Below, piece after piece: positions 48,667-50,718 of a stretch of DNA of 64,000 nucleotides; the stretch's first letter is position 1, and each line of letters starts with the position of its first letter. A program made the position numbers and the translations under genes. The notes under the pieces were generated by a model, which was given only the letters and a program-made list of their open reading frames with translations, did not search any database and was not told the DNA's origin. Source of the DNA: a plasmid; sequence record NZ_CP119397.1. The stretch is one strand, 5' to 3'.

Positions 48667-49702
48667 AATATGATCCTCTGGCTTGGTCAATTGAGCTGAA
48701 CCCGTCCCGCTGCATGCACGCTTTCATTTGCTTAAGCATGGCCGGTATCAGGGAGGGGCCATCATAAATAAAGGCCGTATATATCTGGCAAAGTGTGGCC
48801 CCCATACAAATTCGCAGGTAGGCCTCTTCGCCGCTGTTAATGCCCCCGGATGCGATAATAGGTTTACTGTTCCCGATGGCCGTATATGCCCTTTGCAGCA
48901 TGTCGCGGGATTTTTTCTGCAACGGTGTCCCTGACAAGCCCCCTGTTTGCAGATGTGAAGGCAGATTATTAAGGCTATCCCTGCTGGTGGTGGTATTGCT
49001 GATGATAATCCCATCAACCACAGATCGCGCTAAATAGGCAAGCAGCTCGGATTCTTCACCCGGTGCCATATCCGGGGAGAGCTTAATCAGGAGAGGGCAC
49101 CCCGGTTTCCTTTGCTGCCTTAAGGTATCCAGTCTCCTGAGCAAGGGATCTATCGAGGCCGCCTGCTGAAGATCTCTTAATCCCGGTGTGTTGGGCGAAG
49201 AGAGGTTAATGGTCAGGTAATCCGCAAATGAGATAAGCGTTTCCGCTCCCTTGATAAAATCATCCATATCGTTGGCAGAGGTCTTATTCTTGCCCAGATT
49301 GACTCCCAGCGTGAGGTCACCTTTGTGGTTGATGAGACGTTGCTGCACATACGCCATACCCTTTGAGTTAAACCCATAGCGATTGATAATGGCTCTGTCA
49401 TCTTTCAGGCGGAACAACCGGGGACGGGGGTTCCCAGGCTGAGGCTGAGGGGTGACTGAGCCTACCTCAACAAAACTGAACCCAAGGCGGGCAAGCGCTT
49501 GATACGCCTCGGCATCTTTGTCAAAGCCTGCGGCCATCCCCACGGGGTGGGTAAAGTGTTTTCCCCATACGTTCAGGGAAAGCCCATCAGGAATGCGGAG
49601 AGTTTGAGCCGGCGCAAACCGGCGCAGGCCGAGGATGGCAAGGTGATGCGCGGTTTCGGGATCAAGCCGCAACAGCGCTTTACGGCTGAGTTCAACGATC
49701 AT
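48647..49702 (-). CDS. Class 2 dihydroorotate dehydrogenase paralog (PyrD-like)
   Basis: Collinear similarity to E. coli PyrD incl. catalytic-Ser block ISSPNTPGLR and QTGGLSG; ATGA overlap with upstream gene. Confidence 0.85.
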   Translation of the reverse strand: MIVELSRKALLRLDPETAHHLAILGLRRFAPAQTLRIPDGLSLNVWGKHFTHPVGMAAGFDKDAEAYQALARLGFSFVEVGSVTPQPQPGNPRPRLFRLKDDRAIINRYGFNSKGMAYVQQRLINHKGDLTLGVNLGKNKTSANDMDDFIKGAETLISFADYLTINLSSPNTPGLRDLQQAASIDPLLRRLDTLRQQRKPGCPLLIKLSPDMAPGEESELLAYLARSVVDGIIISNTTTSRDSLNNLPSHLQTGGLSGTPLQKKSRDMLQRAYTAIGNSKPIIASGGINSGEEAYLRICMGATLCQIYTAFIYDGPSLIPAMLKQMKACMQRDGFSSIDQARGSYYVRRTA

Positions 49703-50718
49703 TTCACGACGTCCAGGGTGGCATCAAATGCCTTCAGGCTTAACGCCAGCTGCTGCCTCAGTTGCTCGCATGACAGTAACGGCATCTTTTTATCCGCCAG
49801 CCATTCATCGTCGTAGAACTGTTCCAGATAATTAATGCCGGAGTCGGGTGCTATCGCCATCACTGACTGAATATCGTCAAGCTGCAGCGCCATCAATGCG
49901 CTAAAGATGACCACGCCTGAGGAGCCACCCAGCAGGAGGCCGGTATCCCGCGCAAGCAGGCGGCACAACGAGATGGCATTCTGATCGGTGACGCTGTTGA
50001 GAAAATCAAATGCCTCAAGATCCGTATTTTCTGCCCTCCAGCTCAGCCCCAGCCCATTGAGCAGGTACGGATGGAAGGGCGCGCCGAAAATCGCCGATCC
50101 CACCACATCGCAGGCCATGCATCTTATTTCAGGGCGCGCCGCCCGGATGCCCTTGCTGATGCCGCCGAAATGCCCCCCGGTGCTGACTGAGCCGACGATC
50201 ATATCCACGGGGAGATCCAGAAACTCTTTCGCTGTGACCAACTCGTGATAAAGGGGGTTATCCGGGTTGTCATACTGATTGGTCCAGTACGCGCCGGGGT
50301 ACGTTTTCAGAAGCTCCTTCACCCTTTCAATACGCGCTGTCTGGTACCCGCCGAAGGCGTCCGGCACCTCCACTACCTCGACTTCAGCGCCGAAAGCCTT
50401 AAACCAGTTAAGAGAGTTTTTACTGACTTTGGGATCAACCACCACGATGAGGTGAAAACCCAGGCTGGCGCTGAGCATCGCCAGGGACTTACCCAAATTA
50501 CCGGAGGTTGACTCAATCACTGTGCCGCCCGGTTTCAGCTTTCCGCTTTCGAAAGCCTTCTGGATAAGCCCCAACGCCGTGCGGTCTTTAATACTGAAAT
50601 TAGGATTAAATTGCTCAAGTTTAATAAACAGCTTTTTATTAGGGGGAACAAGCGGGTGTTCAAGTGAAAACACGGGCGTATTACCGATTAACTCGCCGAC
50701 AGCAGAGACTGTATTCAT
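49699..50718 (-). CDS. SbnA-like PLP-dependent beta-replacement enzyme (cysteine synthase fold; N-(2-amino-2-carboxyethyl)-amino acid synthase-like)
   Basis: Very close block similarity to S. aureus SbnA (ESTSGNLG..VVDPK..PDAxGGY..RIxKVxELL), PLP lysine motif SIKDR; AGGAAGGA RBS. Confidence 0.8.
   Translation of the reverse strand: MNTVSAVGELIGNTPVFSLEHPLVPPNKKLFIKLEQFNPNFSIKDRTALGLIQKAFESGKLKPGGTVIESTSGNLGKSLAMLSASLGFHLIVVVDPKVSKNSLNWFKAFGAEVEVVEVPDAFGGYQTARIERVKELLKTYPGAYWTNQYDNPDNPLYHELVTAKEFLDLPVDMIVGSVSTGGHFGGISKGIRAARPEIRCMACDVVGSAIFGAPFHPYLLNGLGLSWRAENTDLEAFDFLNSVTDQNAISLCRLLARDTGLLLGGSSGVVIFSALMALQLDDIQSVMAIAPDSGINYLEQFYDDEWLADKKMPLLSCEQLRQQLALSLKAFDATLDVVK

Follow-up and report, generated by a model that had tools for sequence, protein, structure and literature searches.

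SbnA-type enzymes, which depend on pyridoxal phosphate (PLP), are the source of the diamino acids in siderophores, tuberactinomycins, monobactams and metallo-beta-lactamase inhibitors. This report concerns a relative of SbnA from Chimaeribacter arupi, encoded on a plasmid of at least 250 kb (NZ_CP119397.1), of which a stretch of 64 kb, called the window below, was analysed. The open reading frame (ORF) at 49699–50718, on the minus strand, begins with ATG and encodes 339 amino acids; an identical protein is on record from a C. arupi plasmid (WP_101834657.1 / WKZ94920.1), where it is named 'pyridoxal-phosphate dependent enzyme'. As far as sequence comparison can tell, it is a real relative of SbnA that belongs to a separate and widespread branch, designated clade II here, and it is part of an uncharacterised biosynthetic operon that makes a good experimental lead.

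A sequence-only reading of this DNA had taken SbnA-type synthases to be always paired with an SbnB-type enzyme. This is not the case, since DabB has a kinase and a lyase, DabC, as partners (PMC10906522), while the alanyl unit is retained in the products of AMA synthase and Tln5 (bioRxiv 10.1101/2025.10.30.685158). As the DabB/DabC example makes clear, SbnA-type enzymes can differ in the partner they have, and with all of these systems known, absence of SbnB is not new by itself. That no SbnB is encoded in the window, as the same reading stated, was upheld. When the SbnB proteins of two reference sbnA-sbnB pairs (Bacillus badius plasmid and Ralstonia megaplasmid) were used as tblastn queries, zero matches were found in the 64 kb even at E ≤ 10, and a hidden Markov model of three SbnB-like proteins gave nothing above noise among all six-frame ORFs of the window (best E 0.07, 6.9 bits). 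Nor was an SbnB found beside clade II members in about 45 loci from genomes, metagenomes and plasmids. Absence of an SbnB-type partner within the window is confirmed.

Placement of the PLP enzyme beside SbnA

The protein matches the PALP family (PF00291, E 4e-53), and its top NCBIfam family is TIGR03945 ('SbnA family'), at 286.9 bits against a cut-off of 349.95, which is not reached. Five further members of the clade score 288–307 bits, giving the clade a range of 287–307, all below the cut-off, while the SbnA proteins that are paired with an SbnB reach 435.5 bits (B. badius) and 441.7 bits (Ralstonia). The closest solved structure is that of Staphylococcus aureus SbnA (5d84, E 3e-54, 37.5% identity), and the O-ureido-L-serine synthase DcsD (PDB 3x43) is a detectable homologue (E 9e-40). 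A distance tree placed the query, together with every homologue of at least 54% identity, on a branch apart from the SbnB-paired SbnA proteins of S. aureus, B. badius and Ralstonia, and within this branch the tree tracks taxonomy, not cluster type. The proteins that share at least 54% identity with the enzyme fall into at least 120 clusters when grouped at 90% identity.

Family scores also led to rejection of a plain cysteine synthase, a candidate that the sequence-only reading had raised against its own proposal and that does not appear to apply. The enzyme remains under the cut-offs of the cysK (195.5 against 350.95 bits), cysKM (200.4 against 344.15) and cysM (135.2 against 394.2) models, and far under those of the cystathionine beta-synthase models.

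Donor and acceptor sites

The enzyme and its clade (29 members) were aligned to SbnA and compared residue by residue. The PLP and Schiff-base set is kept, with Lys44, Thr71, Ser72 and Asn74 equivalent to K47, T74, S75 and N77 of SbnA, as are Lys97, Arg129, Gln148, Tyr149 and Ser179 (K100, R132, Q151, Y152 and S185), and the equivalents of all these SbnA residues are present in 29/29 clade members. Three of them, Arg132, Tyr152 and Ser185, are responsible for O-phosphoserine recognition in SbnA (PMC12414870). The loop for the second substrate is changed. R224, E225 and R233 of SbnA are replaced by Tyr218, Leu219 and Trp227, invariantly in the clade, and further changes are Ser189 to His and one Ile of the active-site loop to Lys. 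Citrate, a mimic of glutamate, is contacted in SbnA by Lys100, Arg132 and Arg224 (bioRxiv 10.64898/2026.06.04.730285); in the C. arupi enzyme the first two are retained (K97, R129) and Arg224 is lost (Tyr218). Residues that would separate PyrE-linked or M24-linked PLP enzymes from the other members of the clade were looked for in this alignment, and none were found.

The replacements at R224, E225, R233 and S189, together with the Ile to Lys change, indicate an acceptor site that is less cationic and more aromatic than that of SbnA, which argues against L-glutamate as the acceptor. In the alignment to SbnA that had been proposed earlier, the PLP and O-phosphoserine pocket is the same and favours an SbnA-like donor, while replacement of R224, E225 and R233 speaks against an SbnA-like acceptor. 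Identity as a genuine SbnA was rejected on the TIGR03945 cut-off, the loop residues and the absence of an SbnB partner from the window and the related loci. The earlier proposal of a nucleophile other than glutamate, without oxidative release of L-2,3-diaminopropionate (Dap), gains support from the lack of SbnB across the roughly 45 loci, the sub-threshold family score and the change of Arg224 to Tyr.

The M24 hydrolase, a fixed partner

The two partners that are most informative, and that the sequence-only reading had left unmentioned, are an M24 hydrolase and the operon's own candidate serine kinase. The M24 (prolidase-type) metallohydrolase, with a Creatinase_N domain (PF00557, PF01321), is encoded at 50729–51934 on the minus strand; its ORF extends to 52021, and the annotated start at 51934 gives a protein of 401 amino acids with an exact counterpart on record (WP_101858477.1). 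The closest solved structure is a prolidase (3q6d, E 6e-35), to which the five dinuclear-metal ligands (D,D,H,E,E) can be aligned, and these (D259, D270, H334, E363 and E377) are invariant in the M24 alignment. Within the signature HxxGHxxGLxxHE the second His is a Tyr, so that the substrate may differ from those of M24B prolidase or aminopeptidase P.

In 25 loci that were chosen around the PLP gene, the M24 gene is adjacent to it in 24. A metagenome scan seeded in the opposite direction, with the M24 profile, recovered a clade II PLP gene immediately downstream in all 15 of the 15 loci whose M24 protein shares at least 45% identity. It can be strongly inferred that the two proteins are functionally coupled and that the M24 hydrolase is an obligate genomic partner.

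The nearest M24 subfamily (about 41% identity; metagenome contigs L113–L122, e.g. L114 4048–12768) has no link to the PLP gene. Its neighbours are a luciferase-like monooxygenase, an F420/NADP oxidoreductase, RidA, L-serine dehydratase, an IclR regulator and an ABC binding protein, a set that by analogy resembles a Rut-like catabolic module for some cyclic or N-substituted amino acid. The company of monooxygenase, RidA and serine dehydratase shows that members of this M24 lineage act downstream of flavin oxygenases, on small amides derived from amino acids. In four metagenome contigs (L160, L161, L163 and L175) a distant M24 (about 31% identity) adjoins a distant PALP protein (27–31%); these may be ectoine hydrolase DoeA and EutB dehydratase, a separate M24-PALP association.

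A candidate small serine kinase labelled as a regulator

The gene at 47583–48011 (minus strand) encodes a protein of 142 amino acids (WP_146000865.1), annotated as 'transcriptional regulator' or 'ParB N-terminal domain protein', that carries the DGxHR motif of the ParB/sulfiredoxin (Srx) fold. A profile built from this protein and three small homologues (Photorhabdus, Vibrio and Legionella) matched the free serine kinase SerK (5x0b, E 4e-13), 1vk1 (E 2e-13) and SbnI (5uje, E 5e-8), with generic ParB proteins trailing at E values of about 0.01. The counterparts of SbnI catalytic residues Glu20 and Asp58, E40 and D75, are invariant among the small homologues; according to a statement in PMC9641203 that cites Verstraete 2018, both are needed for SbnI to act as a kinase. 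Small homologues adjoin the PLP gene in Photorhabdus, Vibrio and Legionella, and full-length SbnI homologues directly adjoin it in Brevibacillus (E 9e-54 to SbnI 5ujd), Bacillus thuringiensis and B. cereus.

The protein is a candidate mini free L-serine kinase of the SerK/SbnI type, and on that basis the operon very probably supplies itself with O-phosphoserine. The kinase profile, the retained Glu and Asp, the SbnI neighbours and the conserved equivalents of Arg132, Tyr152 and Ser185 indicate, with good confidence, that O-phosphoserine is the donor of the PLP enzyme. An assignment of the ORF at 47583–48050 as a YdcZ transporter, made by position, was rejected, as the ORF of the window has a ParB/Srx fold and is not related to the gene that occupies the corresponding place in Pectobacterium.

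Pyrimidine, nucleotide and oxygenase genes

The PLP gene is followed by paralogs of class-2 (quinone) dihydroorotate dehydrogenase (PyrD, 48647–49702) and orotate phosphoribosyltransferase (PyrE, 48016–48666), both on the minus strand. That these are real paralogs, as stated by the sequence-only reading, is borne out by the NCBIfam equivalog cut-offs, which both exceed (PyrD, NF003645, 411.5 bits against 366; PyrE, TIGR00336, 155 bits against 106.8). PyrD is nearer to rat/human dihydroorotate dehydrogenase (E 6e-83) than to that of Escherichia coli (1f76, E 3e-72), and, by our reading of the alignment in human numbering, retains the Lys, the four Asn, the Ser and the Thr by which orotate is bound. 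PyrE matches E. coli orotate phosphoribosyltransferase (1oro, E 1e-49) and keeps K26, F34, F35, K73, R99, K100, K103, D124, D125 and R156; the sole change noted is H105 to Tyr in the flexible loop. The probable start of PyrE is Met9 of the ORF 48016–48690, i.e. 48666; a version of 224 amino acids starting with TTG was not present in the protein collection. Both enzymes look canonical and would form true orotate and orotidine monophosphate (OMP), not the 'pyrimidine-like' intermediate that had been ascribed to the pair. Activity upon a serine-derived orotate analogue was judged less likely on the same ground, the orotate-binding residues being canonical.

Further genes of the set are connected with nucleotides or oxidation. 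The small MutT/NudG-like Nudix hydrolase (51924–52301, minus strand; NCBIfam Nudix matches) has a match to pyrimidine (d)NTP diphosphatase (E 2e-8), and its Pectobacterium ortholog matches PF00293. A nucleotide 5'-monophosphate phosphoribohydrolase of the LOG / TIGR00730 family (46644–47207, minus strand; PF03641, TIGR00730 184.9 bits) forms a transcription unit of its own that is repeatedly linked to the operon. The oxygenase component of an HpaB-family two-component flavin monooxygenase is encoded at 52270–53721 (minus strand; PF11794, PF03241) and matches Thermus HpaB (2yyg, E 6e-87). It keeps the hydroxyl-binding Arg100 and His142, while Tyr104 is replaced by Phe, and Ser197/Thr198, which bind the carboxylate of 4-hydroxyphenylacetate, by Met/Pro. 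Its presumed partner is a Fre-like NAD(P)H-flavin reductase (53734–54444, minus strand; NCBIfam NF005963, E 1e-15), which is conserved in Pectobacterium, Photorhabdus and locus L091.

Distribution and variant clusters

Among the 25 loci, HpaB recurs in 17, PyrE and Nudix in 12 each, PyrD and LOG in 7 each, and a serine kinase (mini or full length) in 6. The Nudix loci are the same as those with PyrE except for L097 and L130. The full gene set, which in Pectobacterium is inserted at a site flanked by parE and parC, also occurs in Photorhabdus, Dickeya, a gut-metagenome enterobacterium, Vibrio, Paenibacillus and B. cereus, and linkage to PyrE, PyrD, Nudix and LOG spans Gammaproteobacteria and Firmicutes. 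A LOG gene adjoins the cluster in Pectobacterium, Photorhabdus, Dickeya, the gut-metagenome locus L097, loci L101, L105 and L106, and Staphylococcus epidermidis. In Paenibacillus algorifonticola, genes for a nucleoside-symporter-like transporter of the major facilitator superfamily (MFS) and a HAD phosphatase come after PyrE. The evidence strongly implies that the PLP enzyme of the C. arupi operon is wired to pyrimidine base and nucleotide metabolism.

Clade II homologues were detected by tblastn on plasmids of the B. cereus group, Sphingobium and S. epidermidis, the last with four plasmids. The most compact form is that of a 24.9-kb human-skin plasmid of S. epidermidis (NZ_CP121498.1, 3687–13858), which has the order LOG-SerK-HpaB-Nudix-M24-PLP-PyrE-HD phosphohydrolase-oxidoreductase-MFS, with a DUF523 2-thiouracil desulfurase just upstream and IS257 alongside. 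This operon is possibly an unrecognised metabolite locus of a commensal.

Several clusters carry the PLP and M24 genes in company other than that of pyrimidine genes. In Pseudomonas chlororaphis (L004 5221–12777) the order is HpaB-M24-PLP-flavin reductase-AsnB-MFS, and in Nocardiopsis (L022 8072–13792) it is AsnB-PLP-M24-sulfotransferase; an AsnB-type amidotransferase/ligase accompanies PLP and M24 also in L116 and L129. By a purely speculative analogy, an AsnB-like enzyme acting on a carboxylate and a beta secondary amine would resemble beta-lactam synthetase or piperazinone-type chemistry. Moorena (L088 7806–11008) and other cyanobacteria (L095, L099, L100, L102 and L109) have a CMAS-type methyltransferase next to M24 and PLP, a conserved set of three genes that, to judge from these gene families, could be relevant to the origin of N-methylated diaminopropionate (BMAA). 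A non-ribosomal peptide synthetase (NRPS) is present in locus L091, and an ATP-grasp ligase occurs in the context of the B. thuringiensis PLP gene.

In two further variants the M24 gene is missing. Bacillus and Brevibacillus have SbnI-EamA/DMT-PLP, and in Legionella (L089 / L019, 5365–13181) an opine dehydrogenase and an ABC importer of iron type accompany the mini serine kinase and PLP genes. The Legionella locus, which encodes an ABC ATPase, two FecCD permeases, a periplasmic binding protein and an MFS transporter, by analogy looks like an opine-type metallophore locus in which the PLP enzyme would stand where CntL, which is nicotianamine-synthase-like, is otherwise found.

The PLP gene is truncated to 89–223 amino acids in some genomes of C. 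arupi, Nissabacter archeti and Xenorhabdus griffiniae, and in Dickeya zeae (L094 6018–7430) HpaB is broken into two ORFs. These are signs of decay in some strains.

Proposed pathway and alternatives

The explanation considered best, at a little less than even confidence, is that the enzyme is an O-phosphoserine-dependent PLP beta-replacement enzyme of its own branch, which uses a nucleophile other than glutamate and is linked to the M24 hydrolase. There is strong reason to think that the enzyme draws O-phosphoserine from its own kinase for a beta-replacement, and that SbnB-type oxidative release does not come after it. The small SerK/SbnI-like protein of the operon would phosphorylate L-serine, and the PLP enzyme would expel the phosphate to give an aminoacrylate, as SbnA does, a step suggested by the conserved Lys and O-phosphoserine residues. 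A nucleophile other than L-glutamate would then be added and the alanyl unit kept in the product, with no oxidative cleavage of the SbnB type, and the dinuclear-metal M24 hydrolase would handle either the product or the nucleophile. PyrD and PyrE, with the PyrF of the host, would boost the supply of pyrimidine nucleotides (orotate, OMP); the NudG-like Nudix enzyme and LOG would interconvert nucleotide and base, so that a free base is released or a nucleotide trimmed; and HpaB with Fre would hydroxylate an enol- or phenol-like ring. The PLP enzyme may alanylate a ring nitrogen or oxygen of the (hydroxylated) pyrimidine base or nucleotide, and the product, a heterocyclic alanine resembling willardiine or mimosine, or its riboside, would be exported to serve as an antimetabolite or chelator.

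An aromatic or heteroaromatic intermediate is suggested by the HpaB protein, in which the hydroxyl site is kept and the 4-hydroxyphenylacetate carboxylate site lost, by the presence of HpaB even in the small cluster of P. chlororaphis that lacks PyrE, and by the loop replacements in the PLP enzyme, which are aromatic or neutral. The acceptor that we prefer is a pyrimidine or, in hydroxylated form, a pyrimidine base or nucleotide, a tentative choice that may well prove wrong. Urea or hydroxyurea (as with DcsD), guanidine, cyanate, histidine, tyrosine, ammonia and fragments of an opened pyrimidine ring were weighed as further candidates, and none of them is put forward. The pyrimidine nucleophile put forward by the sequence-only reading is plausible and is favoured by the recurrence of PyrE, PyrD, Nudix and LOG and by the co-occurring 2-thiouracil desulfurase, nucleoside-symporter-like MFS and HD/HAD phosphatases, but the same clade also occurs without pyrimidine genes.

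Several points weigh against the proposed pathway. No residue sets the PLP enzymes of PyrE-linked clusters apart from those of pyrimidine-free cassettes, such as those of Bacillus/Brevibacillus, Legionella and the cyanobacteria, and since one type of enzyme serves in both, the acceptor may be some common primary metabolite that has nothing to do with PyrD and PyrE. A simple scheme of uracil plus O-phosphoserine also leaves the M24 step without a role. PyrD and PyrE could be self-resistance copies and not supply enzymes, and we know of no documented hydroxylation of pyrimidines by an HpaB-family enzyme. A more specific proposal, that clade II and M24 form a third, hydrolase-coupled type of O-phosphoserine alanyl transfer (beside Glu/SbnB and Asp/DabC) that makes a new pyrimidine-derived amino acid or nucleoside, is possible and on balance rather unlikely. 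It could be, for instance, a compound like 5-hydroxy-willardiine or isowillardiine, or its riboside, with a role as antimetabolite, excitotoxin or chelator.

The best surviving alternative, which we regard as unlikely, is an SbnB-independent route to Dap. Here O-phosphoserine would be joined to a carrier nitrogen (the amine of an amino acid, or an amide, ureido or imide nitrogen), and M24, with or without oxidation by HpaB/Fre, would free Dap or a derivative, while PyrD, PyrE, Nudix and LOG would be there for a different portion of the product, or for resistance or supply. Such a route would suit the M24-PLP pair, which is invariant even in three-gene clusters, and its logic of carrier and release has two known variants, Glu/SbnB and Asp/DabC (PMC10906522). 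It would also fit the contexts in which Dap could be consumed, namely AsnB and sulfotransferase in Nocardiopsis, NRPS in L091, ATP-grasp ligase in B. thuringiensis and opine dehydrogenase in Legionella, and the small amino-acid-derived amides to which the nearest M24 subfamily points by its flavin monooxygenase, RidA and serine dehydratase. However, a hydrolase cannot split a secondary amine such as N-(2-amino-2-carboxyethyl)-L-glutamate (ACEGA), amide and ureido nitrogens are poor nucleophiles toward aminoacrylate, and the PLP enzyme occurs without M24 too. The tight recurrence of PyrE and Nudix would also be left unexplained.

The remaining explanations are all less likely than the Dap route. 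In the first, the serine kinase and a CysK-like enzyme would act as an O-phosphoserine sulfhydrylase system yielding cysteine or an S-substituted cysteine. A kinase of the SerK type as partner is in keeping with this, as the SerK of Thermococcus kodakarensis is a serine kinase that feeds cysteine synthesis (PMC5120207). Sulfur nucleophiles are, moreover, the easiest for fold-type II enzymes, and in Bacillus and Brevibacillus the PLP gene is adjoined by an EamA/DMT transporter, of a family that includes the cysteine/O-acetylserine exporter of E. coli. Set against this are CysK and CysM scores that are far under the cut-offs (195 against 351 and 135 against 394 bits), an O-phosphoserine triad that is SbnA's, and an invariant, specific second-substrate loop that points to a larger acceptor. 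The hosts also have complete cysteine pathways, and the gene sits in a mobile operon resembling those of secondary metabolism, all of which leaves the sulfhydrylase quite improbable.

Less probable still is an operon for the catabolism or salvage of a heterocyclic alanine or nucleoside that stems from plants or insects. The PLP enzyme would be a beta-lyase and M24 a peptidase, HpaB would attack the ring, and PyrE/LOG would salvage the base; a LysR regulator, the many plant- or insect-associated hosts and the clearly catabolic sister M24 subfamily would all be in line with this. A dedicated serine kinase, in contrast, is sensible only for synthesis, the de novo enzyme PyrD is present, the linked transporters (MFS, EamA and YdcZ) are of exporter type, and sister clusters have NRPS, AsnB or ligase genes. 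Finally, a genuine SbnA served by an SbnB encoded elsewhere in the C. arupi genome is hardly credible: the search covered 64 kb of the replicon and SbnA is the top-scoring family, but the protein is under an equivalog cut-off that SbnB-paired proteins exceed by about 90 bits, the glutamate-site arginine is substituted, the same operon occurs without SbnB on the 24.9-kb S. epidermidis plasmid and on islands in unrelated hosts, and the roughly 45 related loci have no SbnB.

Operon boundaries and flanking genes

The minus-strand genes are close-packed and their stop and start codons mostly overlap, including those of PLP/PyrD (by 4 nt) and PyrD/PyrE. A terminator-like hairpin followed by a T-run (47430–47446, minus strand), found by consensus scan only, lies 3' of the serine-kinase gene and is the probable end of the operon. 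Upstream, a LysR-type regulator is encoded at 55089–55952 (minus strand; PF00126, PF03466), and its membership of the operon is uncertain; a LysR gene flanks the Pectobacterium cluster, and a family of about 280–300 amino acids with unannotated members recurs in 4 loci.

Just past LOG are two tandem aldo-keto reductase genes (44561–46439, plus strand), which are not conserved in the other loci and show no sign of belonging to the operon. An ORF of 644 amino acids (42151–44085, minus strand) lies in a low-GC patch (39%, compared with 52–63% around it), had no match in Pfam or PADLOC, and was probably acquired separately. The cluster had no match by megablast or blastn in the plasmid collection or in E. 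coli genomes. The PADLOC models gave a single generic Nudix match (PDC-S07), and a reading of the Nudix, phosphoribosyltransferase and SLOG proteins as an anti-phage defence system, which PADLOC does not support, was rejected.

Significance

At about 7–9 kb the operon looks compact and self-contained, as the same gene set is found on the 24.9-kb plasmid and on genomic islands of unrelated hosts. It has spread across several bacterial orders, and its hosts include a human skin commensal, in which plasmids carry it, and pathogens of insects and plants, so that the product is likely to be relevant to microbial competition or host interaction. With so large a sister clade, which differs in its acceptor site and has a fixed partner, many database calls of 'SbnA' or 'cysteine synthase family' are misleading. 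The operon bears on the enzymology of a mini ParB-fold 'regulator', on the use of an M24 'peptidase' in small-molecule biosynthesis, and on nucleobase amino acids in bacteria. To our knowledge such amino acids are known only from plants, and the literature search gave no bacterial report. A full-text literature search gave no account of clade II, of an obligate M24 partner, of the mini serine kinase or of an HpaB-Nudix-M24-PLP-PyrE operon.

Comparison with known systems

SbnA, the ACEGA synthase of S. aureus (PDB 5D84–5D87), is the closest described enzyme. The C. arupi protein shares with it the fold-type II PLP architecture, the Schiff-base Lys, the Asn loop and R132/Y152/S185, and it is likewise partnered with a serine kinase of ParB/Srx fold, as SbnA is with SbnI. 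It differs in its modest identity (37.5%), its own branch, a TIGR03945 score under the cut-off, and the substitution of R224/E225/R233 by Y/L/W and of S189 by His. The two systems also differ in that SbnB is absent from the window, M24 is the fixed partner instead, and the kinase is a mini form of 142 amino acids without the middle part of SbnI. Of the features that define SbnA, the PLP and O-phosphoserine residues are present, while the curated score, the glutamate-site arginine and the pairing with SbnB are lacking. The enzyme probably works like SbnA in the first half-reaction.

The DabA/DabB/DabC system for 2,3-diaminobutyrate (Burkholderia monobactam and friulimicin; PMC10906522) similarly has a kinase along with a CysK-like PLP enzyme, and release is by an enzyme other than SbnB. 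It differs in using a threonine kinase, Asp as acceptor and DabC, which is argininosuccinate-lyase-like; no lyase family was among the recurrent families of the 25 loci. The fungal AMA synthase and Tln5 of Micromonospora are, like the present enzyme as proposed, of SbnA type, without SbnB and with the alanyl unit kept (bioRxiv 10.1101/2025.10.30.685158), but their acceptor is the amine of Asp or another amino acid, their organisms and clusters have no relation to those considered here, and M24, HpaB and a pyrimidine context are absent.

More distant parallels exist for the remaining steps. The SerK of T. kodakarensis (5x0b) and SbnI share with the mini proteins the DGxHR core, a C-terminal K-x-T-x-H motif and the catalytic Glu and Asp, while the mini proteins have only 131–155 amino acids and their kinase activity is predicted. 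In the D-cycloserine pathway (DcsA/DcsB/DcsD) an oxygenase and then a metallohydrolase make a nucleophile that a CysK-like enzyme joins to activated serine. The enzymes there are a heme oxygenase and an arginase in contrast to HpaB and M24, the donor is O-acetylserine, and no evidence for hydroxyurea was seen here. Finally, in the plant beta-substituted alanine synthases (uracilylalanine/willardiine, mimosine and quisqualate; PMC9401013), a ring nitrogen adds to the PLP-bound aminoacrylate, as may happen in the pathway proposed for C. arupi. These plant enzymes belong to the CysK clade and take O-acetylserine, not O-phosphoserine, as donor, and the likeness is one of functional analogy only.

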